Source: Candidatus Saccharimonadota bacterium (GTDB taxonomy: Bacteria > Patescibacteriota > Saccharimonadia > Saccharimonadales > JACOTW01). Taken from it: DNA of 64,000 bases. Under the pieces are notes generated by a model. The model saw only the letters and a list, made by a program, of their open reading frames with translations. It was not told where the DNA came from and did no database searches. The position numbers were made by a program, and so were the translations under genes. The DNA lies in contig JACOTW010000002.1 of assembly GCA_016178135.1 (NCBI GenBank), positions 13,043-77,042 on the forward strand, written 5' to 3'. Shown here piece by piece: positions 5,523-56,666 of the stretch; position 1 is the stretch's first letter, and every line of letters starts with the position of its first letter.

Positions 5523-6461
5523 CTATAGCCCCCGCAAAACAAATTCGTGGGTTTTTGAAGCAATGATCTTTGAGCCAAAAACTGACTTTTCCGAGAGAGA
5601 CATATCCTTAGATACGTTGAACGAGGAAAGGCGGTTTTGGGCCAAAGAGGGTGACTCGAAAAGTCGGGAATTTGTTTTGCGGGGACTATATAACTGTAAC
5701 CCAAAAAACTCCTCAAGTGTTTCAAGGTTGTTTCTATATATTTCGCGTGATAGCTCTGTTCCGACATAACGGAGATGCCATGGTTCATAAGAATAACCAG
5801 TAATTTGCTGCTTATTTTTGGTATAACGGATGATAAAACCGTATTCGTAGGCATTGGCTGTCAGCCATTTGCCTTCCGGTAGGTCCCCAAAACATGATTC
5901 TAATTGACATTTCCTATCCGAACGACCAAGGTCAACCGCTAGACCAGTTTGATGTTCGCTGTGTCCAGGTTGCGCACTATAAGTATCGGCCTTAATCTGA
6001 CCATCTTGCTTAACATAGCCATTATATACTGAAGATTGAGTCGTGTAGCTACGATATCCGCTGACCAACATGAGCGAATATCCTGATTGTTTGGCTCCTA
6101 CAACAAGCTTGGAAAGTGCGTCGTTCATAACGTTGCTGATATGCATGTTTTCGCTGTTGGTAACTTCGCTTAGTAGTATGTTTGGAGTAACAAGATTGGT
6201 TGGTATGTAGGTTCTAGGTAGTGGACGTTGTTTGTTGACGACTACCCAAGGGCTTGCCGGATCAGTCGTAGAATATTTTGCTTTATCAATAACAGGAACG
6301 GCTGATTGAACTTCTGGGTTATTGGCTTTTACTATGGTTTGGGTAGGTGACTTAGGGGCATTGTCGTGTAGCACTAACCAGTAAAAGCTGATTCCAAATA
6401 ATAAGATTGCCAGAACGATAATGACTAGTTTTTTATTCAGGAAAAAATTTCTTCTAAGCAT
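5523..6461 (-). CDS. VanY/M15B D-alanyl-D-alanine carboxypeptidase with an element-derived C-terminal extension
   Basis: SGYRSY...SEHQTGLAVDL...EPWHLRYVG are the zinc-peptidase motifs, and an N-terminal TM anchor is present. The last ~55 codons (5526-5690) are read out of a type A palindromic element. Confidence 0.8.
   Translation of the reverse strand: MLRRNFFLNKKLVIIVLAILLFGISFYWLVLHDNAPKSPTQTIVKANNPEVQSAVPVIDKAKYSTTDPASPWVVVNKQRPLPRTYIPTNLVTPNILLSEVTNSENMHISNVMNDALSKLVVGAKQSGYSLMLVSGYRSYTTQSSVYNGYVKQDGQIKADTYSAQPGHSEHQTGLAVDLGRSDRKCQLESCFGDLPEGKWLTANAYEYGFIIRYTKNKQQITGYSYEPWHLRYVGTELSREIYRNNLETLEEFFGLQLYSPRKTNSRLFESPSLAQNRLSSFNVSKDMSLSEKSVFGSKIIASKTHEFVLRGL
5524..5690. repeat. Type A palindromic element, copy 1 (termini TATAGCCCCCGCAAAACAAATTC / GAATTTGTTTTGCGGGGACTATA)
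   Basis: Terminal inverted repeats of about 23 bp. A second full copy lies at 44905-45071 and a solo right end at 63238-63262. Confidence 0.85.
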
Positions 6462-34108: not shown

Positions 34109-34988
34109 GTATCGCCTAGACAAAGAATTACTGCGTCGAGGATTAGTTGTATCTAGGTCGCAAGCTGAGGATATTATTCGCAGGGGTTTTGTAAGCGTAG
34201 CTGGTATAAGCGTTACCAAACCCGGCTTGTTGGTATCAGAAAATGTACAAATCGTCATAAAATCACGTGTTAGTTTTGTATCACGAGCGGGCGAAAAACT
34301 TCATTCAGTCTTAGATATCCTTCAACTGGATTTGTCGGACAAAGTTGTGTTGGATGTCGGTTCGTCAACTGGCGGTTTTACCGAACTGGCTTTACGCATG
34401 GGGGCAAAAAAAGTTATTGCGGTAGATGTTGGAACCAATCAAATGCATCCCAGCTTGCGTAATGATCCCCGAATTGAACTTCACGAAAAAACCGACATCC
34501 GCAATTATGTGAAAGGATCGACCACTCACATAGACGTTGTTCTGATTGATGTTAGTTTTATATCATTGCGTCAAATATTACCGTACTGCGCTACACTGAT
34601 TGATCGCAATTCGGTGATCGTGGCTATGGCAAAACCGCAGTTTGAGGCTAGACTGGACTTACCCAAAGCTCCCCCATCCCCAGACCAACTAATCTCAAGC
34701 GGTAGCGGTCTGCCTTCTATCAATGTAGCTAAGGCTACCTCTCCTTCAGTCAAACCACTATCAACTCGAGCTGATTTGCCCTGGGAACGGGCGATTTTGC
34801 GTAAGTCCAGTAGAGACATAGTTAAACACAAGGGAGTAATAAAGAACGATAAAATGCGTAGGGAGATACTAAAACACCTTGAAGATAGCATACAAAATTT
34901 GTTCATTATTATCGACAAGGCTGATTCTGGAGTTGCCGGCGCTCGCGGCAATAGGGAGCGCTTTTATTTGTTACGAAAAGCCGGGTAG
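34098..34988 (+). CDS. tlyA: TlyA-like S4-domain rRNA 2'-O-methyltransferase carrying an in-frame type B element
   Basis: The S4 domain reads RLDKELLRRGLVVSRSQAEDIIRRGFVSV. The FtsJ-like AdoMet motif is VLDVGSSTGGFTE, followed by KPQFEA. The GTG start overlaps the efp stop. About 54 codons (34652-34812) are element-derived. Confidence 0.8.
   Translation: MSNKYRLDKELLRRGLVVSRSQAEDIIRRGFVSVAGISVTKPGLLVSENVQIVIKSRVSFVSRAGEKLHSVLDILQLDLSDKVVLDVGSSTGGFTELALRMGAKKVIAVDVGTNQMHPSLRNDPRIELHEKTDIRNYVKGSTTHIDVVLIDVSFISLRQILPYCATLIDRNSVIVAMAKPQFEARLDLPKAPPSPDQLISSGSGLPSINVAKATSPSVKPLSTRADLPWERAILRKSSRDIVKHKGVIKNDKMRREILKHLEDSIQNLFIIIDKADSGVAGARGNRERFYLLRKAG
34652..34812 (-). repeat. Type B palindromic element, copy 3 (inside tlyA, in frame)
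   Basis: Runs ACTGGACTTACCCAAAGCTCCCCCATCCCCAGACC...GGGCGATTTTGCGTAAGTCCAGTA. It translates as LDLPKAPPSPDQ...WERAILRKSS without a stop. Confidence 0.9.
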
Positions 34989-38159: not shown

Positions 38160-38203
38160 TTAACCCCATCTTTCTTTTCCATATGTTAATTCTAACAGTA
38201 ATA

Positions 38204-39501: not shown

Positions 39502-39709
39502 ATATCATAGTCGACAGTTATTTGAGGAGGAGCTGGCAGTTTTTGCCGCGCCGGAACTTGTGCTGTTGACGTACATTGACATGTCAGACTGGAATATATA
39601 GCGATTTTGGGGTCGCCTAGTGTGTTTGAAACTTGTTTGAAGTATCGAACATAACAGGCGGCCCTAAATGGGGAAGCTGGCGGTAACGCCACAAGACAGA
39701 AAGGTAACA

Positions 39710-40291
39710 ATGAAAAAAATTATTGTTATCGCAATCTTGTTGATGGCATTACTTGCCATCAACTCAACTCTTCCCTCCGCTTCTGCGGAAGGAAGCCAAA
39801 GCAGCGTTACCCTTTCGGGGGCAACGCTTTGTGGTGAGGCCGTGACGATGTCCGTCATGGCTTCTGGATTGGAGCCCAGTGTGGGCTTCAGTTTGGAAGA
39901 CCTCGACGACCAATGGGCGTCTTGGGGTATAGGAGGAGTCGGTTTTGACACCGACTCAGAAGGGGGTTTCACCGGTTCGGTGAAGCTTGTAGACGTTGGC
40001 GGGATCGTCCCAACACCAACACGGTTGGTGTTGTCAGTTTTTACCGACGATCCAGATGCTAACGATCCGTGGGTGTCGGAAGACATTACAGTTAGCGTTG
40101 CTAACTGTAATGCGCCACCGACCACACAGCCACCAACAACGGAGCCACCGACCACACAGCCACCAACAACGGAGCCACCGACCACACAGCCACCAACAAC
40201 GGAGCCACCGACCACACAGCCACCAACAACGGAGCCACCGACCATCAAGAAATCATCGAAGCCAAAAACGGCCTTGATGACGACCTTGTGA
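39710..40291 (+). CDS. secreted repeat protein (signal peptide plus PTTQPPTTE repeats)
   Basis: The signal peptide is MKKIIVIAILLMALLAINSTLPSASAEG. C-terminal (PPTTQPPTTE)x4 repeats and a basic tail follow. The gene is visibly more GC-rich than its surroundings. Confidence 0.65.
   Translation: MKKIIVIAILLMALLAINSTLPSASAEGSQSSVTLSGATLCGEAVTMSVMASGLEPSVGFSLEDLDDQWASWGIGGVGFDTDSEGGFTGSVKLVDVGGIVPTPTRLVLSVFTDDPDANDPWVSEDITVSVANCNAPPTTQPPTTEPPTTQPPTTEPPTTQPPTTEPPTTQPPTTEPPTIKKSSKPKTALMTTL
40114..40244 (+). repeat. Perfect 30-bp tandem repeat, about 4.4 copies
   Basis: The unit GCCACCGACCACACAGCCACCAACAACGGA is repeated head-to-tail without a mismatch inside the CDS. Confidence 0.95.
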
Positions 40292-41075: not shown

Positions 41076-43660
41076 GCCAGGAGAAATCGTTACATGCCCT
41101 ATCATCTGGCTCAAAAGCGGGTAATTTTGCCATGAAGCGAAGATTCTGGATGAGTTCTAAAAAATTTGTATTGCTGGGTATAGCGGGGTTTATTAGTCTG
41201 GCGGTTGTCGGCTTGTTGATGCCAGTCAAGGTACAAGCTGATCCGTTTGGGATACCTTGGGGGACTGGTTATTTTACTGGCGCCGGACCAATGTCTGGTG
41301 GTTTGGGCTCGGTTATAGCCGGGGGCATCGCCAGTACTACGGACAAAGCTACCTTTATTCAAAATATTAAAGACGAACTGGGCAATCCTTCTTCTGCTCC
41401 GAAACGAACTGGCGCGGCCTTTATTATTCAGACAATGCGCGGCGCCCCTAGTGGTGTACCCAATCCGCCAAGCGCCGCAGAGATAGCCGATTGGGAAGCG
41501 CGAGTCAATAGTGCAGCCATAACACTAAGCGTTGAGGACTTCTATTTTGATTACAATTCCGGCTACATGAAAGGTGTTGCCGACGACGACGCTTTCTATC
41601 AATCATCAGATACGAGAGTATCCATAGTTTTTCGGCATAACGGCACGGTGGTGTATGCCATAAAGATAGATTGTGGCAATGTTGTCGGGGATCTTCCTGG
41701 TCTGCCACCAATTGATGTGGGTGGCGGCGGCGGCGGTGGCGGCGGTGGCGGTGGTGGCGGCACACAGCTACCCGTCGGCTTTTTAGATGTTGCCAATTGC
41801 AGCACCATAGAGGGCTGGGCTCAAGACCCGGATGATCTGACGGTCAGCATACAGGTACACATTTATATTGGTGGTCCGGCTGGCACGGCGGGTATTACGC
41901 CCTATGCCGCTAATGCTAATATATATCGTGCAGACGTTGGAAATCATGGCTTTGTCTTTACTACACCACCTGGTGTATCTGGGGACGTCTACGTTTACGG
42001 CATCGATATACAAGGCGTGGGTAACCCTGTGCTTACAAATTCCCCAATCAATATAGGTGTTTGCCCTGCACGGGGCCCTACGCCGATAGTTACGACAAAC
42101 TCAACATCGGCGTTTTGTAATGCTGCTACGGGTTTTGGGGTAGCGAATGTTAGCTGGCCGGCCGGTACTTTGACCGGAAGCCTAGGTATTTATATTGACG
42201 TTTCCACCGATCCTGGCTTCGGTAGTTTCTATAAACACGGTCCGCTTTCCGGTACAACTGATGTTATCCCCAACGGCTATGTAGATAGTGTTTCTGGCGC
42301 GCCTATGCCGTCTTTGCCAGGGGGGGTTACCTATTTTGTTCGGCTTTTCAGCGATGCTTATAGCCCGGTTCATTCTAATTTGACTTCATTTGTCGCTCCG
42401 GTTTGTCCGCCCTCCACCCCGACAGCTAGTGCTTCCTGTATCGGTAGCGCTTCCGGCGCTGCTATTACATGGTCCGGTAGCCCCGATGCTATTGGTCCTA
42501 GCGGAGCAGTCGGCTTTTATGTGGATCTGTCTACGGATTCAGCCTTCGGCAGTTTTTATACCAAGTGGGCCGGTAATGTTAACTCTACGCAAGGGCCAAG
42601 TGGATTTGTTTTGAATGGATCAGGGACGCCCATGCCTTCTATGGTGGCTGGTACTTGGTATACTCGTGTTAATAATGGTCAGTTTTCCAGCGTAACATCC
42701 TTTACGACATTGGATTGTCGTGCTCCTTATATAAGAGCTTATGGTGGTGATGTCAGAGCTGGCGATAGTTTTCCTGATAGTAGTGGCGTATGTAGCCCTG
42801 TGGCCAGTGCCGACATAAAAGCATTCAATGACTCGGCAAATAATTATGCCGGATCTGGTAGTCAGTCTGCCGTATTTGCTACTGGCAGTATCACGGAATT
42901 TGTATCATCCGCCATGAGTTTGAGTACATCTATAGCACAGGTACCCAAAGGGCTAACCTTTGCTAACAGTTCTGGGATATATGGTGGTAATTTTGGCAGC
43001 AATGAATGTTTGCCAGACTTTTTTGCCAATGCCCAAAAAGTTCCTTCTCCCACTAGTGGCCCTAGAACTATTGATATTGGTTTAATAGAGGGCGCTTCTC
43101 CTGCTGGTCCCAAAGAGGGTAAATTTTATGTAAAGGGACCAGGTTTAACAACCGTCATCGGTCAATCCGGCCCTATATTTAACAGAACCAGAATAACAGT
43201 TTACGCAGATGGTGACGTAGTTATAAGAGATAAGAACATTATATATTCCGGCGGGTATAATGCGCCAAGAGATATACCGGCTATATATGTTATCGCGAAA
43301 GGCAATATCTATATCGATAAATCAATAACCCAGCTGGATGGTGTGTATGTGTCACAAATGGGAACAATCTATACTTGCTCAAACGGACCTGCCATACCAG
43401 GAGATCCCTGGCTGGTGGCTAATTGTAATTCAAAACTTGTCGTAAACGGATCTTTGATGGCACCAAACATTAAATTTTTACGACTGGCGAACAACTTGAG
43501 TAATGCCAGCCATGGCGAGGACGCTTATTCCAATAATGCCGCCGAAACATTTAACTTTACTCCTGAATTTTGGATAACGCATTTTCCGGTATGGGGCAGT
43601 AATTCGGGTGGTTCTTCGGGGTCATACGACATGATCACTAATCTGCCACCAGTTTTATAG
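41072..43660 (+). CDS. large secreted/surface protein with a poly-glycine linker
   Basis: 862 aa with an N-terminal TM/signal (FVLLGIAGFISLAVVGLLMPV) and a G13 run encoded by a GGN repeat at about 41718-41760. Two similar domains repeat the pattern (G/S)xxIxWxG..xxG...G(I/F)Y(I/V)D(V/L)STD(P/S)(G/A)FGSFY. No family recognised. Confidence 0.6.
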   Translation: MSQEKSLHALSSGSKAGNFAMKRRFWMSSKKFVLLGIAGFISLAVVGLLMPVKVQADPFGIPWGTGYFTGAGPMSGGLGSVIAGGIASTTDKATFIQNIKDELGNPSSAPKRTGAAFIIQTMRGAPSGVPNPPSAAEIADWEARVNSAAITLSVEDFYFDYNSGYMKGVADDDAFYQSSDTRVSIVFRHNGTVVYAIKIDCGNVVGDLPGLPPIDVGGGGGGGGGGGGGGTQLPVGFLDVANCSTIEGWAQDPDDLTVSIQVHIYIGGPAGTAGITPYAANANIYRADVGNHGFVFTTPPGVSGDVYVYGIDIQGVGNPVLTNSPINIGVCPARGPTPIVTTNSTSAFCNAATGFGVANVSWPAGTLTGSLGIYIDVSTDPGFGSFYKHGPLSGTTDVIPNGYVDSVSGAPMPSLPGGVTYFVRLFSDAYSPVHSNLTSFVAPVCPPSTPTASASCIGSASGAAITWSGSPDAIGPSGAVGFYVDLSTDSAFGSFYTKWAGNVNSTQGPSGFVLNGSGTPMPSMVAGTWYTRVNNGQFSSVTSFTTLDCRAPYIRAYGGDVRAGDSFPDSSGVCSPVASADIKAFNDSANNYAGSGSQSAVFATGSITEFVSSAMSLSTSIAQVPKGLTFANSSGIYGGNFGSNECLPDFFANAQKVPSPTSGPRTIDIGLIEGASPAGPKEGKFYVKGPGLTTVIGQSGPIFNRTRITVYADGDVVIRDKNIIYSGGYNAPRDIPAIYVIAKGNIYIDKSITQLDGVYVSQMGTIYTCSNGPAIPGDPWLVANCNSKLVVNGSLMAPNIKFLRLANNLSNASHGEDAYSNNAAETFNFTPEFWITHFPVWGSNSGGSSGSYDMITNLPPVL

Positions 43661-43672
43661 ACAAAAAGGGTA

Positions 43673-43703
43673 TTGTCATAAATGGTAATGGTTATGCTAT
43701 AAT
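43673..43703 (+). promoter_or_regulatory. Candidate extended -10 promoter of the pil operon
   Basis: TTGTCA, a 19-nt spacer, then TGcTATAAT at 43695-43703. Confidence 0.35.
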
Positions 43704-43816
43704 TTGTCTAAGTAGTAGTCTGGCCAAATGGCAGATTTACTCATACGAAGAATGGATTACATAAACTATGAAAATTACCAAAAAGAACAAAAGAACAGCA
43801 AAGGTGTTTTAGCGGA

Positions 43817-44857
43817 ATGAGTATATTGAGTGGGGTATCTGAATTTTTCGGTCTAGATATGGGGACTACAGCTATTCGCTTGGTAGAACTTAGGGGTAGC
43901 GGGCCAGTTAAAGCTCTAGCTAAATACGCCTATGTGCCCGTTGACAGCAAGCTTGCTTTGAGCGATTCCAAGGCCGATCAATTACGCCTAGTGAAAATTA
44001 TTAATGATCTTATCACCGAAGCACGGGTATTGACCAAAAATGTGGCCGTTGGTATTCCGTCGCAACGAGTGTTTACTACGGTTGTAGATATTGAGCGCTT
44101 GTCGCCTGCCGAGCTGGCTAAAAGTCTGAAATACCAAGCCGACGCCTTGATTCCGACGCCATTGTCAGAATCTAAGCTTGACTGGTCACTACTAGGGGAT
44201 TCACCTAAGGATAAAACAAAGATGGAAGTCCTGCTCTCTAGTGTTACTAATGAATTTGTAGAAAATCGTCTGGATTTGCTGGAATCGATTGGTCTCAATG
44301 TTATTGCGTTCGAGCCGGATAATTTGGCACTTAGCCGCGCATTGATCGCTCCAGACGCAGTTATGCCACAAATGGTGCTTGATATTGGTAGCAAGAGCAC
44401 CGATCTGGTTATTGTTATGAATGGAGCGCCAAGATTGACTAGATCTATTCCGACAGGGTCAGAAGCTATCATTAAAGCCGCAGTACAGAACCTGAATATT
44501 GACGAAAAACAGGCCGGAGAATTTGTTTTTAAATTCGGTCTTTCTAAGGACAAATTAGAAGGGCAAATTGCCCAGGCTATCTTAAGTACGGTTGATTTGC
44601 TAGTGTTAGAAATCGATAAATCCATAAAGTTCTTCCAGGCGCGCTATCCGGAAACCAAGGTTGATCGCATTATCGTAACTGGTGGTGCTTCGGCTTTACC
44701 GGAGTTTCCATTGTATATTGCTAATAAGTTTGGCATAAGCGTTGAGATTGGTAATGCTTGGCGTAACATATCTTTTGCTGCTGATCGTCAGAACGAACTA
44801 CTGGCCGTTTCCAGCCATTTTGGTGTGGCGGCGGGGTTAGCGGAGAGGCAAGAATGA
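43817..44857 (+). CDS. pilM: type IV pilus assembly protein PilM (actin-like ATPase fold)
   Basis: The N-terminus is FGLDMGTTAIRLVEL. 346 aa, followed by pilN and pilO. Confidence 0.85.
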   Translation: MSILSGVSEFFGLDMGTTAIRLVELRGSGPVKALAKYAYVPVDSKLALSDSKADQLRLVKIINDLITEARVLTKNVAVGIPSQRVFTTVVDIERLSPAELAKSLKYQADALIPTPLSESKLDWSLLGDSPKDKTKMEVLLSSVTNEFVENRLDLLESIGLNVIAFEPDNLALSRALIAPDAVMPQMVLDIGSKSTDLVIVMNGAPRLTRSIPTGSEAIIKAAVQNLNIDEKQAGEFVFKFGLSKDKLEGQIAQAILSTVDLLVLEIDKSIKFFQARYPETKVDRIIVTGGASALPEFPLYIANKFGISVEIGNAWRNISFAADRQNELLAVSSHFGVAAGLAERQE

Positions 44858-44904
44858 AAAAACGCATAACGACAAAATCTAAATACGCCCAAATGACCGC
44901 TATG

Positions 44905-45071
44905 TATAGCCCCCGCAAAACAAATTCGGGGGTTTTGGAGCCGATGATCTTCGAGTCAAAAATTGGCTTTTCCGAGGGAAGCATATCATTAGATAAGGTG
45001 AGTGAGGAAAGACAGCTTTTGACCGGAGAGGGCGGTTCAAAAAGCCGTGAATTTGTTTTGCGGGGGCTATA
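44905..45071. repeat. Type A palindromic element, copy 2
   Basis: Runs TATAGCCCCCGCAAAACAAATTCGGG...CGTGAATTTGTTTTGCGGGGGCTATA and aligns along its full length with 5524-5690. Confidence 0.9.
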
Positions 45072-45085
45072 TTATGCTGGTACTG

Positions 45086-45247
45086 TACTGGACTTACGCA
45101 AAGCTCCCCCATCCCCAGACCAATTCATCTTGGCTGGTAGCGGTCTGTCTTCTCTCGATGTAGCTAAGGCTACCTCTCCTTCAGATAAAACAGTTTTCGC
45201 TCGAGATAATTCACTCTGGGAACGGACGATTTTGCATAAGTCCAGTG
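45086..45247 (-). repeat. Type B palindromic element, copy 5 (mosaic of subfamilies)
   Basis: Runs TACTGGACTTACGCAAAGCTCCCCCATCCCCAGACC...GGACGATTTTGCATAAGTCCAGTG. It lies 14 bp from the type A copy. Confidence 0.9.
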
Positions 45248-45272
45248 TACTACTGTCATCAGAGGTTATGTC

Positions 45273-45986
45273 ATGATTCAGTTTAACCTCTTACCTGACG
45301 TAAAGCTTGATTATATTAAAGCTAAGCGAATCAAACGCTTTGTAATATTGATTTCTATTACTATTGCCGGAGCACTTCTGGCAATTATGGTATTGCTGTT
45401 TTTGGCTGTCAACGTCTTTCAGAAAGGTCACCTGGATGACTTGAACGTTGATATCAAAAAGTATAGTACAGAACTAAAGAGTACGCAGGATCTAAGCAAA
45501 ATATTAACTATTCAAAATCAACTTAATAAATTGAATAAACACGATAATACGCCTGGACTACATGATAAAAAACCGGTTGCCTCCCGCTTATTTCCGTATT
45601 TGTCGCAGATGCTTCCTGATAAGCTTAGCATTGCAAACCTTGATGTTGACTTTGAAGTACAAACCATGTCTTTCACCGGTGGTGCTGACAGCTTGAGTAC
45701 TATTAATAAATTTGTTGATACCCTTAAGTTTACAACCTACAAAATTGACAAGGAGCCCAATGAGATAAAAGCTTTCTCAAGCGTAGTGTTAACTAATTTT
45801 GGGCGTGATGACGCTGCTGCCACCTATCAGATAGATCTTAAATTCGACCTTCTTATCTTTGATTCATCGAAAGAAATAAGTATCCTGGTACCTAAAATCA
45901 TCACTACTCGTTCTGAAACCGAAAAGCCAGTTGATCTATTTCAGTCGACAGGTAGCGAACAAATTAATAAACAGGTTAACGAGTAA
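45273..45986 (+). CDS. pilN: type IV pilus assembly protein PilN-like
   Basis: IQFNLLPDVK at the N-terminus and a single TM segment are present. Its position after pilM supports the call. Confidence 0.75.
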   Translation: MIQFNLLPDVKLDYIKAKRIKRFVILISITIAGALLAIMVLLFLAVNVFQKGHLDDLNVDIKKYSTELKSTQDLSKILTIQNQLNKLNKHDNTPGLHDKKPVASRLFPYLSQMLPDKLSIANLDVDFEVQTMSFTGGADSLSTINKFVDTLKFTTYKIDKEPNEIKAFSSVVLTNFGRDDAAATYQIDLKFDLLIFDSSKEISILVPKIITTRSETEKPVDLFQSTGSEQINKQVNE

Positions 45987-45989
45987 ATT

Positions 45990-46664
45990 ATGGTTAAACT
46001 TGCTTTTTCTACAAAAAGACTTCAGATCGATAAGGCAAACTCGGCGGTTGTTATAGCAACGGCTGTTGCCGTATTCATTGCTGTGTTTTCGTTGTTCGCA
46101 TCGAAGGCATTGCTTAGTAAACGTTCCTACCAGGGGCGCGTTATAGACGGTAAAGAAAAAGCAGTCAAGCAGTTAAAAGATAATTTAGTTGCTCGTGATG
46201 GCTTGGTGAGTGCCTATAAGCAGTTTGTTGAAGCGCCAACCAACATACTGGGAGGTAACCCTAACGGCACAGGCGAAAAAGATGGCGATAATGCCCGCCT
46301 GATTCTAGATGCCTTGCCAAGTAAGTATGACTATCCAGCTCTAGCCAGTAGTTTAGAAAAAATACTGACTGATAAAAGCTTTGTGTTTAAATCTATTACG
46401 GGTAGCGATGATGAAATTGTTCAACAAAAAAACCCCAGTAGTCCTGAACCTGAAGTAGTTGATATGCCGTTTGAGATAACTGTTGGCAGTACATATAATG
46501 CCGCACCTAGCTTGATATTACTTTTTGAGAACTCCATACGGCCATTTCAGATTCAAAAACTTTCTCTTAGTGGCACCAACGCTGATTTAGCAACCGTTAT
46601 TAAGGCCAAGACTTTCTATCTTCCTGAAAAAAATCTAAACATAGGGACAAAGGTAGTTAAATGA
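45990..46664 (+). CDS. pilO: type IV pilus assembly protein PilO-like
   Basis: A single N-terminal TM segment and a coiled region are present. Position in the pilMNO series supports the call, and there is an ATGA overlap with the next ORF. Confidence 0.6.
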   Translation: MVKLAFSTKRLQIDKANSAVVIATAVAVFIAVFSLFASKALLSKRSYQGRVIDGKEKAVKQLKDNLVARDGLVSAYKQFVEAPTNILGGNPNGTGEKDGDNARLILDALPSKYDYPALASSLEKILTDKSFVFKSITGSDDEIVQQKNPSSPEPEVVDMPFEITVGSTYNAAPSLILLFENSIRPFQIQKLSLSGTNADLATVIKAKTFYLPEKNLNIGTKVVK

Positions 46665-46918
46665 AACAAAAAGACATTATTGTAATCATTGTCGTTACTT
46701 TTATTAGTGTGGTTATTTCTCTGTTATTGTCCACTAAGCTGTTTGATCCGCCTAAAAATCGTACGACGGAAGTCGAGGTTGTTCAGTCAATAACTTCTGA
46801 CTTCTTAACTCCTGACAAAAAATACTTCAATGATAAATCTTTGAACCCAACCAAACTAATCCAAATCGGTGATAGCTCCAACTCACAACCATTTAATAAT
46901 AATCAGACACAGCAGTAG
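46661..46918 (+). CDS. small single-TM pilus-cluster protein
   Basis: 85 aa, with the TM segment IIVIIVVTFISVVISLLLS. It appears translationally coupled to pilO. Confidence 0.45.
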   Translation: MKQKDIIVIIVVTFISVVISLLLSTKLFDPPKNRTTEVEVVQSITSDFLTPDKKYFNDKSLNPTKLIQIGDSSNSQPFNNNQTQQ

Positions 46919-46932
46919 ATTGAAGCGGCGAT

Positions 46933-48741
46933 ATGAGCATCTTATCGGCTGCTATCCAGAAACAGGTTGAAGAAAAGCTTATTAATGACGGTTTGATTAC
47001 CAAGGCCAAATTTAATGACCTTAAAGCCAAAGCGGATGCTGATCATGTACCCGTACTGGGCCTCCTGATTAAGGATGGACAAGTATCTAACGAAGTGCTG
47101 ACTAAAACAGTATCACACATTACCAAAGTACCTTACGTGAATCTGTCTAATGCCAAGATTGACCAAAATATTCTGCAACTTTTGCCACAAGCTCTAGCCG
47201 AGCGTTATATGTCCGTGCCACTCGGGGAAATGCATAATCGTTTAGTGGTAGCCATGCTGGATGCCGGTAATGTTCAGGCTGTGGATTTTCTGTCCAATAA
47301 GATTGGTCGTCCGCTCAAGGTTTATGCTGCCAGCGAAGAAGGCATCAGAAATGTTATAAAACAATATAACTTTTCACTAGACAAGGGAATACCAGGCTCC
47401 TTGACTAAACAGGCAGATACCGAAGCGCAAGCTCTGGAATTAGAAAAATCTAATCTTAAGCCGACTGATAAAACCCAAAATATTAAAGATATTGTTCAGG
47501 ATTCTCCGATTAGTAAGGCTTTGACGACTATTCTTGAGTATTCTGCCAATAACCGAGCTAGTGATATTCATATTGAACCGCTGGAAAAAGAATTGAGAAT
47601 TCGTTGCCGTATCGATGGAGTGCTGCGTGAAATTATGAAGTTACCCAAAAGCACTGAACCGGCTTTGATATCTCGCATCAAGATTCTATCTAATTTAAAA
47701 ATTGACGAACACCGCATTCCTCAAGATGGTACTTTTACCGTTCAGGTGGGAGAAAAGAGCATTGATCTGCGTATAGCGATTTCTCCGGTAGTGTGGGGTG
47801 AGCAGGTAGTTATAAGATTGCTTGATAAGTCTGGGACCAGTCTCAAGCTCGAGGATATGGGATATGCTGGACGAGCATTACATACTATCCGTAAAGGGTT
47901 AAAAGAGTCTAATGGTTTGATTTTGACTTCTGGGCCGACTGGTTCCGGCAAATCTACCTCTATGTACGCGCTTATTCAGGAGATAAAAAACGACAGCATT
48001 AATATTGTTACGCTGGAAGATCCGGTTGAGTATAAGGTAGATGGGGTTAATCAGATACAGGTTAACAGCGATGTTGGTCTGACATTTGCCGCGGGTTTGC
48101 GCTCTATACTGCGTCAAGACCCTAATGTTGTCATGGTCGGGGAAATTCGTGATAAAGAAACTGCTACTCTGGCTGTCCAAGCGGCCCTTACTGGGCACTT
48201 GGTGTTTTCAACCCTGCATACCAATTCAGCTGCTGGTATTTTGCCACGTTTGCTGGATATGGGCATTGAGCCATTCTTGATTGCTAGCACAGTCCATACG
48301 GTTATTGGTCAGCGTTTAGTCCGGCGTATTGCCGGAGAAGACAAAGAAACTCGCCAATCTGACAAGCCGGAAACAGAAGCCATTCGCCAAACAGTCGATC
48401 ATATATTACCGGAAAAATCAGGAGACGTTAAGGCGGTGGCCATAGATCTTGGCTACGAGGACTTGCCGTTGAGGGGGCAAAACGCTTATACTTTATATCA
48501 GGGCAAAGATAGTCCCGATACGCCCGGCGGTTATAAGGGAAGAATGGGGCTGTATGAGGTCTTTGAGATAACGGACACGATTCAAGATCTGATTCTCAAA
48601 CGATCTACCAGTAGTGAGATCCAAAAAGCCGCCCAAGCCCAGGGTATGGTAACTATGCGGGAAGATGGATACCTCAAGGCTCTTGTCGGTCAAACGACAA
48701 TTGCCGAAGTTAATCGGGTGGCTTCTGTCGATAGCGCGTAA
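46933..48741 (+). CDS. pilB: type IV pilus assembly ATPase PilB (GspE family)
   Basis: An N-terminal T2SE_N-type domain is present. Walker A is GPTGSGKST, with an Asp box, Walker B (VVMVGEIRD) and a His box (TGHLVFSTLHTN). Confidence 0.9.
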   Translation: MSILSAAIQKQVEEKLINDGLITKAKFNDLKAKADADHVPVLGLLIKDGQVSNEVLTKTVSHITKVPYVNLSNAKIDQNILQLLPQALAERYMSVPLGEMHNRLVVAMLDAGNVQAVDFLSNKIGRPLKVYAASEEGIRNVIKQYNFSLDKGIPGSLTKQADTEAQALELEKSNLKPTDKTQNIKDIVQDSPISKALTTILEYSANNRASDIHIEPLEKELRIRCRIDGVLREIMKLPKSTEPALISRIKILSNLKIDEHRIPQDGTFTVQVGEKSIDLRIAISPVVWGEQVVIRLLDKSGTSLKLEDMGYAGRALHTIRKGLKESNGLILTSGPTGSGKSTSMYALIQEIKNDSINIVTLEDPVEYKVDGVNQIQVNSDVGLTFAAGLRSILRQDPNVVMVGEIRDKETATLAVQAALTGHLVFSTLHTNSAAGILPRLLDMGIEPFLIASTVHTVIGQRLVRRIAGEDKETRQSDKPETEAIRQTVDHILPEKSGDVKAVAIDLGYEDLPLRGQNAYTLYQGKDSPDTPGGYKGRMGLYEVFEITDTIQDLILKRSTSSEIQKAAQAQGMVTMREDGYLKALVGQTTIAEVNRVASVDSA

Positions 48742-48764
48742 AACTAATAAGGATGGGAAATTAT

Positions 48765-49832
48765 ATGCAGGGACAACCAAGAATCGAAGTACTACTGGAA
48801 GAAGTCATCAAGCGTAAGGCTTCTGATTTGCACTTGCAAGTTGGATTGCCGCCTATGTTGCGCGTTGATGGGGCTTTAATAGCGGTAACTGGATCAGATG
48901 TATTAGATGAAGAAGGGGTTGAATTATTAATTTTTGCCGTACTGGATGAAGACCAGAAACAGATTCTATTGAAAGATAAAGAGTTTGATTTTAGTTTTGC
49001 TTTTGGTGATCTTGGTCGTTTTCGAGTAAACGCCTTCCATGAACGCGGCAATCTTGCGGCCGCCTTGCGCCTTATTCCGAATGAAATTTTAACTATCGAA
49101 CAACTTGGGCTACCACCAGTTGTCAATAAGTTTGCTGATTATCCGCGTGGCTTGGTGCTGATTACTGGGCCGACCGGTTCCGGCAAATCTACCACACTGG
49201 CCGCCTTAATACACAAGATTAATACAGAGCGAGCCGCGCATATTATCACCATTGAAGACCCAATTGAGTTTACCCATAAATATAGTAAATCCGTGATCGT
49301 ACAAAGAGAAGTGCACTATGATACCTATTCTTTTTCTGCCGCTTTGAGGAGTAGTTTGCGCGAAGATCCGGATGTTGTGATGATTGGTGAAATGCGCGAT
49401 CTAGAAACTATAGCCGCGGCTATTACGATTGCCGAAACTGGACATCTGGTCTTTGCCACTTTGCACACCAACTCTGCCGCTCAAAGCATTGACCGTATGA
49501 TTGACGTTTTTCCACCACATCAACAGCCCCAGATTCGTGCCCAATTGTCTAATATTCTGATGGTTATCTGTTCACAGCGTCTAGTGCCAGCCATAGGTGG
49601 TGGTCGATTAGCGGCTGCCGAAATTCTTATTGCTACTCCGGCTGTGCGTAATATTATTCGAGAAGGCAAGAGCCATCAACTTGAGGCAGTGATCCAAACC
49701 GGCGCGGAACACGGCATGCAATCCATGGACAAGACGCTGGCCAACATGATTCATAATGGTAGCATTAGTTATGAAGAAGCTCGCATGGTTGCTGTAGACT
49801 TAAAAGAACTTGATCGTTTAATGAGGGGCTAA
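48765..49832 (+). CDS. pilT: twitching motility ATPase PilT
   Basis: ASDLHLQVGLPPMLRVDG, GPTGSGKSTT and ETGHLVFATLHTNSA are present. About 355 aa. Confidence 0.9.
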   Translation: MQGQPRIEVLLEEVIKRKASDLHLQVGLPPMLRVDGALIAVTGSDVLDEEGVELLIFAVLDEDQKQILLKDKEFDFSFAFGDLGRFRVNAFHERGNLAAALRLIPNEILTIEQLGLPPVVNKFADYPRGLVLITGPTGSGKSTTLAALIHKINTERAAHIITIEDPIEFTHKYSKSVIVQREVHYDTYSFSAALRSSLREDPDVVMIGEMRDLETIAAAITIAETGHLVFATLHTNSAAQSIDRMIDVFPPHQQPQIRAQLSNILMVICSQRLVPAIGGGRLAAAEILIATPAVRNIIREGKSHQLEAVIQTGAEHGMQSMDKTLANMIHNGSISYEEARMVAVDLKELDRLMRG

Positions 49833-49842
49833 AAAATGAGTA

Positions 49843-50040
49843 TACTGGACTTACGCAAAATCACCCGTTCCCAGGCTAAACTGGACTTACGCAAAATCGT
49901 CCGTTCCCAGAGTGAATTATTTCGAGCGAAAACTGTTTTATCTGAAGGAGAGGTAGCCTTAGCTACATCGAAAGAAGGCAGACCGCTACCAGCCGAGATG
50001 AATTGGTCTTGGGATGGGGGAGCTTTGCGTAAGTCCAGTA
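49843..50040 (+). repeat. Type B palindromic element, copy 6 (duplicated left terminus, mosaic)
   Basis: TACTGGACTTACGCAAAATCACCCGTTCCCAGGCTAAAC is followed at once by a second TGGACTTACGCAAAATCGTCCGTTCCCAG..., and the copy ends ...GAGCTTTGCGTAAGTCCAGTA. Confidence 0.9.
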
Positions 50041-50086
50041 TACAATTAGTACAATCCATGATTAGCCGGCATATTGGAGCTTCGGT

Positions 50087-51307
50087 ATGTTGACCTACAA
50101 ATATATCGCTAAAGATATGACTAGTGGCCAGAAGATCAAGGCCCAGGTTCAGGCTGATAGTGAGCAAGAAGCAGCTAAATTGATTCATGCTCAAGGCTTT
50201 ACTCCACTCAATATTACTTTGGAGGGTGCTGGTGTTGGGAGCATATTTAAGCGTTTTGGTAATCATGTAAAAACCAAAGACAAGGTTTTGTTTTCGCGTC
50301 AATTATCTACGCTTATCAATGCTGGATTGCCAATAATTCAAAGTTTGCGCAGTGTTTTAAGCCAAACACAGAGTAAGCCATTAAAAGCAGTAATTAATCA
50401 AGTAATAACTGATGTAGAAGGCGGTTCGGCGCTTTCCGTGTCTTTAGGGCGGCATCCGGCTGTTTTTAACGATGTTTTCACTAGTCTGATTGCTGCCGGC
50501 GAGGTTTCTGGTACGCTGGATGCCGCGTTGGATCGGCTTGCTATTCAGCAAGAAAAAGACGCTGAAGTAATCAGTAAAGTTCGTGGCGCCATGATTTATC
50601 CAATCATTGTCGTTATTGTTATGATGGGCGTTGTTGGTTTTATGGTTGTTACGGTCTTGCCGCAAGTGGAGATTTTATATGACGGCTTACCGGGCTCTAA
50701 ATTGCCGTTTGTTACGGTGGCTCTCTTGGCGCTGTCGCATTTTGTCATAAAATTTTGGTGGCTTGTTCTCGTGTCGTTGGTTGTATTCGTACTTTTCACG
50801 ACGCGCTGGGCCAGGACATTGGCGGGTAAGCGAGTATTTGATAAGCTCAAAATGAAAAGCTGGCCAATCGGCCCATTGTTCATGAAACTTTATATGGCGC
50901 GTTTTGCCCGAACCGGCACTACACTGGTATCCAGTGGCGTACCACTGATACAAATGCTGGAAATAACATCTGACGCTATAGACAACGTTCATATTGCAGA
51001 ATCAATCAAGGCGGCCATAGAAAAGGTCAAGGGCGGTAAAGCGCTATCGACTGCTCTTGAAAATGATCCTAACTTTTTAGAACTGGTACCGAATATGTTA
51101 AAAATTGGTGAACAATCAGGTTCTATAGAGCAAATGCTAGCCAAAACAGCCGACTATTACGAAAAAGAGGTAGACAACCAAATCAAAGCCATATCAACCA
51201 TTATCGAACCAGTCATGATGGTATTGATAGGTGGTATGGCGTTTATCATTGTAGCGGCCGTATTGTTGCCAATTTATGGCCTGGCTGGCCAAAATATCAT
51301 CAAATAG
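50087..51307 (+). CDS. pilC: type IV pilus platform protein PilC (GspF family)
   Basis: 406 aa with two GspF repeats (FSRQLSTLINAGLPIIQSL / FARTGTTLVSSGVPLIQML) and three TM regions. Confidence 0.9.
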   Translation: MLTYKYIAKDMTSGQKIKAQVQADSEQEAAKLIHAQGFTPLNITLEGAGVGSIFKRFGNHVKTKDKVLFSRQLSTLINAGLPIIQSLRSVLSQTQSKPLKAVINQVITDVEGGSALSVSLGRHPAVFNDVFTSLIAAGEVSGTLDAALDRLAIQQEKDAEVISKVRGAMIYPIIVVIVMMGVVGFMVVTVLPQVEILYDGLPGSKLPFVTVALLALSHFVIKFWWLVLVSLVVFVLFTTRWARTLAGKRVFDKLKMKSWPIGPLFMKLYMARFARTGTTLVSSGVPLIQMLEITSDAIDNVHIAESIKAAIEKVKGGKALSTALENDPNFLELVPNMLKIGEQSGSIEQMLAKTADYYEKEVDNQIKAISTIIEPVMMVLIGGMAFIIVAAVLLPIYGLAGQNIIK

Positions 51308-52052: not shown

Positions 52053-53042
52053 ATGATTAACGGTATAATTATAGTTTTTGTTGGATTGGTTTTGGGTAGT
52101 TTTGTCAACGCGTTGGTTTGGCGGCTACATCTACTGGCCTTACGCAAAGCTCCCTCATCCCCAGACCGACTAACCTCGGCTACAAACAGTTTTTCCTCTC
52201 TCGATGTACCTTCAGGTACCTCTCCTTCGGATAAAACTGTTTTCGCTCGAGCTGATTCGCTCTGGGAACGAGGGATTTTGCGTAAATCCAGCCTACAATC
52301 CACCAAACATCCAAAAAAACCTGATAATAAAAAATATTCGATTGTTAGTGGGCGTAGCATGTGTCCAGATTGCCGACACCAGTTGGCCTGGTATGATTTG
52401 ATCCCAGTCATTAGTTGGCTAGGTCTTCGGGGGCGCTGTCGCTATTGCCATAGACCAATAAGTTGGCAGTATCCATTAGTGGAAATACTAACTGCTGTAA
52501 CTTTTATCACATCGTATGTTTATTGGCCTTACTCTTGGTCTGCTATTGGTATTACGTTATTTATTGTTTGGATCGTGTCGCTTATCAGTTTCATGGCGCT
52601 TGCCGTCTATGATTTGCGTTGGTTTATTTTGCCGGATAAAATTGTATTTCCTTTAGTCGGACTTGCGGCCATCCAGATCATCATGCGGACTGTATTATAT
52701 GGCGAAATAAGTCCTATACTAGGTGGTCTAATAGGTGTTGTTACGCTTGCTGGTTTATTTTATGCACTGTTCCAATTCTCAAAAGGACAGTGGATTGGTG
52801 GAGGAGATGTAAAGCTGGCAGTAGCTCTAGGTATGTTGGCAGGCGGAGCGGCCGAGAGCGTGTTACTGCTATTTTTAGCATCGTTAATTGGTACTTTGGT
52901 GAGTTTACCACTTCTGTTAAGTAAGAAACTAAAAAAGAATAGCCGGATTCCATTCGGCCCCTTACTTCTTATGGCTACCTTTATCGTCTATATTTTTGGG
53001 TCTGACATCATTAATTGGCTTAAGCTGTATTATTTTTATTAG
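52053..53042 (+). CDS. pilD: prepilin peptidase (A24 family) carrying an in-frame type B element
   Basis: LGSFVNALVWRL...CPDCRHQLAWYDLIPVISWL...CRYC forms a zinc-finger-like region. GGGDVKL is an active-site Asp motif. About 53 codons (52132-52291) are element-derived. Confidence 0.85.
   Translation: MINGIIIVFVGLVLGSFVNALVWRLHLLALRKAPSSPDRLTSATNSFSSLDVPSGTSPSDKTVFARADSLWERGILRKSSLQSTKHPKKPDNKKYSIVSGRSMCPDCRHQLAWYDLIPVISWLGLRGRCRYCHRPISWQYPLVEILTAVTFITSYVYWPYSWSAIGITLFIVWIVSLISFMALAVYDLRWFILPDKIVFPLVGLAAIQIIMRTVLYGEISPILGGLIGVVTLAGLFYALFQFSKGQWIGGGDVKLAVALGMLAGGAAESVLLLFLASLIGTLVSLPLLLSKKLKKNSRIPFGPLLLMATFIVYIFGSDIINWLKLYYFY
52132..52291 (-). repeat. Type B palindromic element, copy 7 (inside pilD, in frame)
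   Basis: Runs TACTGGCCTTACGCAAAGCTCCCTCATCCCCAGACC...GAGGGATTTTGCGTAAATCCAG. It translates as LLALRKAPSSPDRL...WERGILRKSS. Confidence 0.9.
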
Positions 53043-53179: not shown

Positions 53180-54289
53180 ATGGACAGTCATAAACAGCCA
53201 CAAGCATCCCATAGATCTTATAGTCAGGGCAGTTTACTCGACTCACCCAAAATCGCCCGTTCCCGGAGTGAATTATCTCGAGCGAAAACTGTTTTATCTG
53301 AAAGAGGGGTACCTGAAGGTACATCGAGAGAGGAAAAACTGTTTGTAGCCGAGGTTAGTCGATCTGGCGATGGAGGAGTTTTGGGTAAGTCGAGTATAGG
53401 CTATACGATTGTTGAAGTTATGATTTTTCTGGCTATTTCCAGTGCCATACTTGTTAGTGCTTTATTGTTGGTAGGTGGGCAACAACAAAAAACGCAGTTC
53501 ACCCAATCTTTAAGAGATATTGATTCTCATATTCGTGACGTAATGAATGACGTGTCAGCTGGTATTTATAGTAATACTGGCAATTTTCAGTGCCTGGCAG
53601 ATAATGCCGGCAGTGCTCCAGTTATATCGGCTGGTGCCGATAAACAAGGAGCAAATGTCAGCTGTATTTACATCGGTAAGGTTTTACAGTTTGGACCGGC
53701 TTCCAGTCCAGAGGATTTCAATGTGTTTAGTGTTGCCGGCCGTCAATTTCGAGGCGCGCCAATTGCCTCAAAGTTAGTTTCAGATATAACAGAGTCTAAG
53801 CCAGTGCCAATAGCGCCGAATATCGCTCATCTTGCCATGATTGGTCCAGGATTAGATGCTACAGATTACAATAAACTCGATTACGGACTTACTATAAAAG
53901 ACAATAGTGATGGGGCTCATCCGGGCTTAAGTTATGATAATGGTAGTGGCCCGCAGGCCATAGGGGCATTTGGCTTTTTTTCTAACTTTGTTACTTATCC
54001 TGACGGTAGTGCAAGTCCTGAATCAGGTCGACAGTTTACCGATATTTGGGTGATCCCTGCCAGTGCTTATGGCGATGATGCGCGAAATGTTGCCGACGAC
54101 ATCATTGATATTGGTGGTTTAAGCAGTTCAGCTGCTACCTCGTTTAAAAATCCGGCTAAAGGTATTACTTTATGTTTTTTGAGTAGCGGAACAGATCAAT
54201 ATGGCAAAATAACTATCGGTGATAATAATCAAAGACTTGCTACTACGTTGTCAGTAGGTTACAGAGGAGATGGGAGTATTTGTACATGA
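53180..54289 (+). CDS. pilin-like protein (prepilin-type N-terminal domain) with an element-derived leader
   Basis: The mature N-terminus would be G|YTIVEVMIFLAISSAILV. The 72 codons before it are mostly type B element. An alternative TTG start at 53381 is preceded by GGAGGA and would give the leader MGKSSIG. Confidence 0.7.
   Translation: MDSHKQPQASHRSYSQGSLLDSPKIARSRSELSRAKTVLSERGVPEGTSREEKLFVAEVSRSGDGGVLGKSSIGYTIVEVMIFLAISSAILVSALLLVGGQQQKTQFTQSLRDIDSHIRDVMNDVSAGIYSNTGNFQCLADNAGSAPVISAGADKQGANVSCIYIGKVLQFGPASSPEDFNVFSVAGRQFRGAPIASKLVSDITESKPVPIAPNIAHLAMIGPGLDATDYNKLDYGLTIKDNSDGAHPGLSYDNGSGPQAIGAFGFFSNFVTYPDGSASPESGRQFTDIWVIPASAYGDDARNVADDIIDIGGLSSSAATSFKNPAKGITLCFLSSGTDQYGKITIGDNNQRLATTLSVGYRGDGSICT
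53235..53396 (+). repeat. Type B palindromic element, copy 8 (in the 5' part of the pilin-like gene)
   Basis: Runs TACTCGACTCACCCAAAATCGCCCGTTCCCGGAGTG...GATGGAGGAGTTTTGGGTAAGTCGAGTA. Confidence 0.9.
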
Positions 54290-55463: not shown

Positions 55464-56666
55464 ATGAAAAAAATCATTACACTGGACTTACGCAAAATCG
55501 CCCGTTCCCAGGCTAAATCAGCTCGAGTTGGGAGTGGTTTAGCTGAAGGAGAGGTAGCCATAGCTACATCGAGAGAAGACAGACTGCTACCAGCCGAGAT
55601 GAATTGGTCTGGGAATGGGGGAGCTTTGCGTAAGTCCAGTACACTCAAAAAAAACCAGTCTGGTCTAGTTTCTATAATAGTAACCTTGATAATCATGTTG
55701 GTTATGAGCTTAATTGTTATTGGCTTTGCTAAGCTGGTACGGCGTGATCAACGCCAAACGCTTGATAAGCAACTTAATGCCCAGGCGTTTTATGCTGCCG
55801 AAGCAGGCATTAATGACGCTAGGCAAGATATTAGGGTCGCCCTTAATGCTGGAACACCAATTCCAGAGAAATCTACCTGTGCCCCAAACAGTAGTCCGCC
55901 TTTTGATAAGTCAAATATAGTTGATAGCGCACGTAACATTTCTTATACCTGTCTTCTTGTCGATCCGACGCCTGAAAGTCTGGAATACAGCAATATTGAC
56001 ACCAGCACCTCGACAGTTGTGCCGGTAACACTTAAAGATACGACCGACCACATTACGTCAATAACTGTAAGCTGGCAAGCTAAAGATGGAAATACGAATT
56101 TTGCTTGTCCGGGTAGCGGTGTTTATCCGGCTCTGCCCGCGTCTTCTCTATGGGGATGTGGTATAGGTATTATGCGACTAGATCTTGTCCCGACTGATGG
56201 ACATAAGACAAGGGCTGATTATACGAATACGACTTTCAGTAGATTCCTGTATCCTTTACCGGGGTCGCCAGGAGTTAATTCTGTTGGATATGTAGGTAGT
56301 CAAGGTGATTTTGTGCCAGTACAGTGCAGTGCTACGGCTGTACCAAAATACTGTACGTTAACCATAACGGGTTTAAGCACCACCAATTTATATATCCGTC
56401 TGAAGTCAATATATATTGCTTCAAACGCTACGATTACTTGTACGACTGCCTCGGGTGCGGCATGTGAAATGGGCGGGACGCAGATATTGGTTGATTCTAC
56501 AGGGAAAGCCAATGACGTTTTACGTCGTATACAGGTGAGGGTTCCTGATGTAATATCAGGTATATTGCCGGAAGGAGCGCTTGATACCAGTAGCAATATC
56601 TGTAAACGTTACGTTATTGTTAATAACTCTTCTTTGAGCGATCCTGATTCATGCGGTACCAATTAA
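55464..56666 (+). CDS. PilX-like pilus-associated protein with a type B element in frame after codon 6
   Basis: MKKIIT + [LDLRK...LRKSS] + TLKKNQSGLVSIIVTLIIMLVMSLIVIGF. A basic leader followed by QSG and a hydrophobic helix is the PilX-type pseudopilin pattern. Confidence 0.65.
   Translation: MKKIITLDLRKIARSQAKSARVGSGLAEGEVAIATSREDRLLPAEMNWSGNGGALRKSSTLKKNQSGLVSIIVTLIIMLVMSLIVIGFAKLVRRDQRQTLDKQLNAQAFYAAEAGINDARQDIRVALNAGTPIPEKSTCAPNSSPPFDKSNIVDSARNISYTCLLVDPTPESLEYSNIDTSTSTVVPVTLKDTTDHITSITVSWQAKDGNTNFACPGSGVYPALPASSLWGCGIGIMRLDLVPTDGHKTRADYTNTTFSRFLYPLPGSPGVNSVGYVGSQGDFVPVQCSATAVPKYCTLTITGLSTTNLYIRLKSIYIASNATITCTTASGAACEMGGTQILVDSTGKANDVLRRIQVRVPDVISGILPEGALDTSSNICKRYVIVNNSSLSDPDSCGTN
55481..55641 (+). 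repeat. Type B palindromic element, copy 9 (in the PilX-like gene, in frame)
   Basis: Runs ACTGGACTTACGCAAAATCGCCCGTTCCCAGGCTAAATCAGCTCGAG...GGGGGAGCTTTGCGTAAGTCCAGTA. Confidence 0.9.

Follow-up and report, generated by a model that had tools for sequence, protein, structure and literature searches.

The stretch of DNA analyzed here, called the window below, is 64,000 nucleotides (nt) of a Candidatus Saccharimonadota genome (contig JACOTW010000002.1) that includes genes of a pil (pilus) system. Between pilM and pilN, an ATG-started open reading frame (ORF) of 140 codons, encoding 140 amino acids (aa), occupies 44854..45276 of the plus strand and runs through two hairpin repeats, one of type A and one of type B, from the stop codon of pilM to the start codon of pilN. 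We show the anatomy of this frame, the ancestral state of the junction in which it lies and the statistical enrichment of such frames at two pil junctions in independent lineages; the bridging feature is real and non-random. The ORF is probably a relay (bridging) cistron rather than a gene for a useful protein.

The bridging frame between pilM and pilN

At the left end of the spacer, the TGA of pilM (44855-44857) overlaps the ATG of the bridging ORF (44854-44856) in a shared ATGA, and at the right end the TGA of the bridging ORF (45274-45276) overlaps the pilN ATG at 45273 in another. The spacer between the two genes (44858-45272) is 415 nt long. In this orientation a single frame of the type A copy is free of stops (YSPRKTNS...EFVLRGL), its other strand likewise has stop-free frames, and the stop-free frame of the type B copy reads LDLRKAPPSPDQ...ERTILHKSS. 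The ORF, both ATGA overlaps and the spacer length had been described in the initial annotation of this DNA and are confirmed from the sequence, as is the recurrence of the pattern between pilT and pilC. Of the repeat coordinates given there, those of type A stand, whereas type B, placed at 45086-45247, extends slightly further on both sides (Table 1).

The state of the junction before the insertion can be seen in relatives. At 78-86% PilM identity, pilN begins 4 nt before the end of pilM (..GAATGATYCAGTT..). The ATGA overlap is present in loci L126, L127, L128 and P0020, and the same or a similarly tight arrangement is found in about 45 of 57 further metagenomic loci; in most relatives, the pilM-pilN and pilT-pilC junctions are both tight (-4 to +10 nt). 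In the alignment, the ATG of the bridging ORF falls on the ancestral pilN ATG and its Shine-Dalgarno sequence on the ancestral one, GGAGAGG at 44842-44848, in the last codons of pilM. Because the relatives have the overlap and no spacer, the position at which the bridging ORF starts is that of the original pilN start codon, with the original ribosome-binding site ahead of it. A duplicated ATGA stands on either side of the 415-nt insert as a whole, and on the evidence of these alignments the insert split an ancestral ATGA overlap and duplicated it.

A second bridging ORF, 49836..50093, begins 4 nt beyond the stop codon of pilT. It passes through a B copy in reverse orientation, and its last 7 nt overlap pilC, which starts at 50087. 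The ancestral spacing of pilT and pilC in relatives is 1-10 nt. In one relative without A or B (L128, 15624-15767), pilT and pilC are separated by 138 nt of unrelated sequence, bridged by a separate ORF of 47 codons that terminates at the same TGA in pilC codons 2-3.

The pilM-pilN insert can also be compared between closely related strains. Strain GCA_040960765.1, 98.9% identical to the window, has about 30 differences in the spacer, including a swapped internal module, and keeps the 140-codon ORF. The left flank (44858..44904) differs at 4 of its 47 positions between two strains that are ~98.9% identical overall, and three of the four differences are amino-acid changes. The swapped module is a clustered block in the B copy (window 45119-45150 against L002 of GCA_040960765.1; A1 columns 320-350), with GGCTGGTAGCGGTCTG versus GGCTACAAACAGTTTT; the block matches an alternative internal module of other B copies, the ORF remains open, and the change looks like gene conversion between copies.

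Searches around the junction returned little else. No other copies of the flanks 44858-44904 and 45251-45272 were found when these were tested as possible ends of a third element; the flanks resemble the insert of locus L129 only loosely (ATGAAAAAC, CATCAG(A)GGTTAT), too little for a claim of homology. Rfam gave no match across 43500-51500, and a promoter and terminator scan was unremarkable. All four Logan short-read contigs with an identical pilM (L003-L006) stop ~76 nt past the pilM stop codon, inside the A repeat. The repeats thus explain why short-read assemblies break right after pilM, and such inserts would be under-represented in metagenomic surveys.

Spanning frames at pil junctions across lineages

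The comparison of spanning ORFs with shuffled controls that the initial annotation had suggested was run on pil loci rather than genome-wide. The sample consisted of 57 metagenomic pil loci, in which independent lineages were counted, and the null of dinucleotide-preserving shuffles of each spacer with the flanks kept, 1000 per spacer. For the two junctions of the window, a spanning ORF appeared in 0/1000 shuffles (pilM-pilN) and 2/1000 (pilT-pilC). This null is too easy here, because each A or B element has an inherited stop-free frame. A fairer, random-phase null for pilM-pilN takes about 1/27 for A, B and the end being in phase, multiplied by the chance that 27 flank codons are open; we estimate it at roughly 1%.

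Spacers of at least 51 nt (51-415 nt) separate pilM and pilN in nine independent lineages. Their sequences are unrelated, and all nine are spanned by sense ORFs. A single ORF does so in eight of the nine, against 0.9 expected (per-spacer null 0.001-0.43; Poisson-binomial probability of at least 8/9, ~7e-11); these eight ORFs begin -4 to +2 nt from the pilM stop and end 2 nt before the pilN start or overlapping it. The ninth lineage, L186 (149-436), has a relay of two ORFs that meet where the pilN start is duplicated internally (ATGATTCAATTCA), with ATGA at each junction; the internal duplicate implies a target duplication of at least 13 nt. At pilT-pilC, strict bridging is found in seven of the nine lineages with spacers, against 0.7 expected (Poisson-binomial P ~5e-8), and in the other two, ORFs ending on pilC span the distal part of the spacer.

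Strand and location matter as well. When pilM-pilN and pilT-pilC spacers of at least 95 nt are taken together, 15 of 16 have a stop-free sense frame, versus 1/16 for the antisense strand of the same spacers (Fisher p = 8.6e-7) and 2/22 for control spacers on the same contigs, from the upstream gene to pilM and from pilC to the pilin gene (Fisher p = 1.3e-7). The peptides encoded between pilM and pilN in other lineages are unrelated, an example being a 40-aa ORF at this place in L129. That all spacers are strong hairpins was considered and rejected: only about half are unusually structured (z below -2.5), so an open sense frame is the more general trait.

Two further hairpin families were seen among the spacers. 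In L138, L141, L168, L169, L170, L174, L185 and L186, one arm of the pil spacer is built of tandem heptamers (for example CAGTATT, CTTACCG and AATTTCC, each four times) and the other arm of the complementary heptamers. These spacers often start with a start-codon palindrome, ATGAC..GTCAT, and end with CCGGAGGT; their sense strand, and not the opposite one, is free of stops in each of the three phases. Related heptamer copies occur at different junctions in different genomes, so they probably belong to a mobile family. A different family (CCCGTTAGACC...GGTCTAACGGG) is found in the L129 pilO-orf4, L167 orf4-pilB and L169 pilN-pilO spacers, where there is no open sense frame; these spacers are exceptions to the bridging pattern.

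Repeat families A and B

The window contains about 15 B copies and two A copies. The elements are ~165 nt long and dispersed, with terminal inverted repeats (TIRs) of 39 nt (A) or ~23-34 nt (B), and their stop-free frames are their only ORFs. Each folds as one long hairpin (RNA z = -7.4 for the pilM-pilN spacer and -4.9 for the pilT-pilC spacer), and Tandem Repeats Finder detected no tandem array of A or B units. Filled sites can be paired with orthologous empty sites in L126-L128. [quoted passage not shown] They are recently active.

The frames themselves are a property of the family. B has exactly one stop-free frame per orientation, forward LDLRKAPPSPDQ...WERAILRKSS and reverse LDLRKIARSQ...WSGDGGALRKSS, and 1-6 stops in the other frames; type A is similar. 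Both strands are open in 15/17 full-length B copies versus 5.3 expected if substitutions are placed randomly on the consensus, a contrast that is inflated by the subfamily structure of B. The bridge peptide itself has no Pfam match, and its 18 relatives among 5.8 billion proteins are all element copies. They come from a few Saccharibacteria metagenome-assembled genomes and none is from Rickettsia, an absence that tests RPE membership with limited sensitivity. A contig scan with the 14-mer TGGACTTACGCAAA gave at least 119 matches, mostly due to chance; among the matches listed there is one real B-like copy, in L104 (Candidatus Saccharimonas sp.).

Elements also lie in frame inside or beside protein genes, in some cases in the middle of a domain (TlyA, PilD, DHFR, NUDIX and TsaE) and in others at the N-terminus (RNase HII, CyoD and a PilX-like pilin); orthologs do not have the insert. 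PilD had no match among solved structures. In two pilin-like genes (window 53180-53410 and 55464-55660), B lies in the leader region, with a cleavage motif of the form G↓(Y/L)-hydrophobic right after it. Prepilin peptidase would remove the peptide of a translated element, and this could render such insertions harmless; with a TTG located within the end of the element, the gene at 53180 would have a normal leader of 7 residues (LGKSSIG). To judge from these genes, element frames are demonstrably tolerated in translated sequence.

Related strains and other parts of the window hold additional repeats. In strain GCA_040960765.1, a type C element (~171 nt; termini GAACTAATTAACATCTATC and GATAGATGTTAATTAG) lies within a B copy's loop (L002, 4278-4449). 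The site is orthologous to the apex of the B copy at 38199-38365 in the window, where C is absent; since C is present in only one of two strains that are 98.9% identical, its transposition was recent. The same strain also has a forward B nested in the apex of a reversed B (P0125), and the composite is one uninterrupted 108-aa ORF. Another family (ATAGGACTTACGTACTTTCTCACC..CCAGAC), with a terminus related to that of B, is found at window positions 6506-6546, 29409-29449, 53043-53083 and 60466-60506; its copy at 6505-6668 is a full-length divergent element adjoining the B copy at 6666-6822. A repeat of another kind lies within ORF 39668..40291, where a 15-nt tandem repeat (GCCACCGACCACACA / GCCACCAACAACGGA; window 40114-40263) encodes a Pro/Thr-rich, extensin-like stretch that varies in length between two strains (gene calls of 193 versus 216 aa).

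Table 1. Genes, bridging ORFs and repeat copies discussed in the text (window coordinates; ↓, cleavage motif)
Feature	Coordinates	Strand	Details
pilM	43817..44857	+	346 aa; PilM_2/FtsA-like, Pfam PF11104
Bridging ORF, pilM-pilN	44854..45276	+	Begins with the former start codon of pilN; its TGA overlaps the current one
Left flank of insert	44858..44904	+	Unique sequence, open in the bridge frame
Type A hairpin repeat	44905..45071	+	39-nt TIRs
Type B hairpin repeat, forward	~45084..45250	+	Inverted repeats reach 45080-45253
Right flank of insert	45251..45272	+	New Shine-Dalgarno-like AGAGG at 45261-45265, 7 nt upstream of the pilN ATG
pilN	45273..45986	+	237 aa; N-terminus MIQFNLLPD from this ATG conserved in all relatives
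pilT	48753..49832	+	359 aa; last codons (MRG) hold the ancestral pilC Shine-Dalgarno sequence
Second bridging ORF, pilT-pilC	49836..50093	+	85 codons; TGA inside pilC codons 2-3
Type B copy, reverse orientation, with duplicated 36-nt terminal repeat	49839..50042	-	Copy 49877-50042, repeat 49839-49877
pilC	50087..51307	+	406 aa
Type B in TlyA/FtsJ methyltransferase gene	34649..34812	+	KPQFEA-(55 aa)-RDIVKHKGVIKND; ortholog KPQFEAGADAVHKGVIKND
Type B in prepilin peptidase PilD	52132..52296	+	Inside A24_N_bact domain; 84-position domain spread over residues 10-156
Type B in leader-peptide region of PilX-like minor pilin	55477..55644	-	MKKIIT-(element)-LKKNQSG↓LVSII; relative MKRQEDIKLLKNQKG↓LVSIV
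Type B in pilin-like gene	53231..53398	-	In phase with and directly before G↓YTIVEV cleavage motif
Second type A	5524..5691	+	Minus strand forms the C-terminal 56 residues of VanY-domain ORF 5523..6461

A probable relay cistron, its alternatives and known systems

As a relay cistron, the 140-codon ORF would work as follows. Ribosomes ending pilM, or binding the old GGAGAGG, would start at the old pilN ATG (44854), translate through both hairpins and so melt them, stop at the TGA and reinitiate on the overlapping pilN ATG with the new AGAGG upstream; the pilT-pilC insert would operate in the same way. Structure prediction for the untranslated RNA leaves the pilN Shine-Dalgarno sequence largely base-paired (unpaired probability 0.24), and GUUAUGU at 45265-45271 is predicted to pair with GCAUAAC at 44864-44870, near the start of the bridging ORF; translation of the ORF would open this pairing. 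At coupled junctions, selection would keep only those spacers with a sense frame open from the upstream stop to the downstream start, and the stop-free frame on each strand would allow A and B to sit in frame inside proteins as well, in the manner of RPEs. We infer that the benefit of the bridge lies in maintained translational coupling or in protection from Rho or RNases; plausibly, the bridge would avoid Rho polarity or keep RNase III from cleaving the long hairpins.

Several points weigh against this explanation. First, among all in-operon pil spacers of at least 95 nt, a single open sense frame is present in 18/25, with a mixed picture at other pil junctions; the remaining ~7 are the two-ORF relay of L186 and six spacers at pil junctions apart from pilM-pilN and pilT-pilC. 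Second, in the same genome the A- or B-containing spacers xseA-xseB, bipA-NYN, HIT-HAD and tsaD-leuS are not cleanly spanned. (Elsewhere in the genome, one B-containing leader ORF shares ATGA with the start of a GH1 gene, and a second stops 10 nt short of a HIT gene.) The initial annotation had proposed that insertions persist inside operons only when an open frame keeps ribosomes travelling; this idea is largely supported, but with ~7/25 pil spacers lacking a single open sense frame and these four A/B spacers not cleanly spanned, ‘only when’ is too strong. Third, within each spacer the downstream start is closely preceded by a separate Shine-Dalgarno sequence, through which the downstream gene might initiate independently. 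Fourth, both strands of A and B are also open where the copies lie between divergent or convergent genes; the open frames are therefore in part inherited rather than selected at this site, and what is specific to the pilM-pilN site is no more than the phasing and the open flanks. Fifth, the left ATG and the right TGA are dictated by the conserved PilM C-terminus (GAA TGA) and PilN N-terminus (ATG ATT), so neither is independent evidence for selection, and ATGA at both ends was rejected as such. Finally, translation of the bridging ORF is itself inferred.

Of the other explanations, the one that fares best overlaps with the relay cistron and does not exclude it. Selfish elements similar to mycobacterial interspersed repetitive units (MIRUs) might target start codons or junctions, each carrying with it a start, an open frame, a Shine-Dalgarno sequence and a stop, and would in this way do no harm from the moment of insertion. 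Related heptamer hairpins at L169 pilT-pilC, L170 orf4-pilB and L168 orf4-pilB each begin with ATGAC..GTCAT at the upstream stop and end with ..GGAGG..NNN before the downstream start, L186 duplicates at least 13 nt of the pilN start, and MIRUs offer a precedent (PMC12548453). The A and B elements fit less well: their ends contain neither a start codon nor a Shine-Dalgarno sequence, both of which come from unique flanks here, and they insert at many sites that are not junctions. The dinucleotides AG, GT or AT at the flanks of B copies, candidates for target duplications, are equally assignable to the TIR. We consider design at the level of the element rather unlikely.

Less likely again is a passive by-product, in which two inherited, RPE-like stop-free frames happen to be in phase and nothing is selected at the locus. 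It would account for nearly every copy having one frame without stops on each strand irrespective of context, as in the divergent intergenic copy at 38199-38365, where the B frames are also open, and in the B nested inside B; the ATG and TGA at the ends are in any case forced by the neighboring genes. It requires, however, three phase coincidences and 27 open flank codons, the roughly 1% estimated above, and then the same again at pilT-pilC. It also leaves unexplained why, in eight other lineages, unrelated spacers without A or B are spanned on the sense strand alone, and why control spacers are not spanned.

It is very improbable that the ORF encodes a genuine small protein, such as a new pilus-assembly accessory factor. 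Gene finders do call it, in full (140 aa) in GCA_040960765.1 and in part in GenBank (hypothetical protein HY003_00740, 110 aa, GCA_016196105.1), and it has a good Shine-Dalgarno sequence and ATG. The absence of a Pfam match speaks against a protein, as do the 18 database relatives, all of them other repeat copies in unrelated contexts; the junction is without a gene in relatives whose PilM is 78-86% identical, L129 has its unrelated 40-aa ORF in the same place, and three of the four flank differences between strains change an amino acid. The view in the initial annotation that these are not real protein genes is supported accordingly, also by the unrelated spacer peptides of other lineages. 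An open frame by pure chance, favored by nothing except that short ORFs are common, is refuted by the shuffles and by the replication across lineages, and its probability is negligible.

With the relay cistron as the preferred explanation, the comparative evidence, being replicated, points to translational continuity across an operon junction as something that is itself under selection. A general rule may be suggested tentatively, with confidence that falls slightly short of even: in Saccharibacteria, and perhaps in other small, gene-dense genomes of the candidate phyla radiation, DNA acquired at a coupled junction would survive only as a translated relay cistron. If this is true, unrelated mobile families have converged on being ‘translation-transparent’, with a stop-free sense frame and often their own start and Shine-Dalgarno sequence, and the A and B frames on both strands permit one type of element to reside inside proteins, in cleaved pilin leaders or between coupled genes. 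Nature would also have provided a replicated experiment on how far termination-reinitiation coupling can be stretched, to 140 codons or to two ORFs in series. The natural spacers (51-415 nt, with and without strong hairpins) can be used to study termination-reinitiation, Rho polarity and RNase protection. For annotation, dozens of ‘hypothetical proteins’ in Saccharibacteria metagenome-assembled genomes can be explained as repeat-derived relay ORFs or in-frame inserts.

Among known systems, A and B have the generic features of MITEs: TIRs, small size, no transposase, multiple dispersed copies and presence/absence polymorphism. Correia and ERIC elements are hairpin MITEs that are co-transcribed in operons and can alter mRNA stability or processing, acting as untranslated RNA structures that are targets of RNase III or RNase E; the A and B hairpins here, unlike these, lie inside an ORF. 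MIRUs are direct, often tandem, units of 40-100 bp in Mycobacterium. As summarised in PMC12548453, they are operon repeats with a co-oriented ORF that overlaps the flanking stop and start (-4 nt; Supply et al. 1997), and in the interpretation given in that summary translation stays coupled and the insertion is harmless. The pil inserts resemble them in lying between co-oriented genes of one operon (pilM-pilN, pilT-pilC) and in having a co-oriented ORF that overlaps or abuts the flanking stop and start. They differ, in a comparison by description rather than by sequence, in being ~165-nt, non-tandem hairpins with inverted termini that are open on both strands; in addition, A and B also occur inside coding sequences, their host is a member of the Saccharibacteria, and the start codon and Shine-Dalgarno sequence lie in the flanks and not in A or B.

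RPEs are described in PMC10969869, which cites Ogata et al. 2000, as ~150-nt palindromic repeats encoding a conserved peptide and inserted in frame in unrelated housekeeping genes, which survive the insertion. A and B are likewise ~100-170-nt, multi-copy palindromic repeats with a conserved peptide, in frame in unrelated conserved protein genes. The host phylum is different, and there is no Rickettsia protein among the 18 peptide relatives, a search with limited sensitivity for RPE families 1-10; bridging between translationally coupled genes is not mentioned for RPEs in that MITE review. Intragenic ERIC, Coxiella QMITE1 and Anabaena MITEs are other small mobile repeats with ORFs, for which in-frame fusions are possible (PMC10969869); their sequences are unrelated to A and B, and systematic bridging from stop to start is not reported for them in the same review. 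In synthetic bicistronic designs, the stop of a leader cistron overlaps the start of the gene, and its translation melts structure and delivers ribosomes (PMC12548453, ref. 78); the pilus bridge, in contrast, is natural, with a leader cistron made of mobile DNA. The literature searched did not pair Saccharibacteria with MITEs, and bridging MITE-like inserts have not previously been reported there for Saccharibacteria. A and B are set apart from MIRUs by structure and host and from RPEs by host and, as far as the peptide search reaches, by sequence, yet they would work like both. The MIRU idea is thereby extended to a distant phylum and to hairpin MITEs, and in-frame insertion of the RPE type and bridging of the MIRU type become two outcomes of one property, a stop-free frame.

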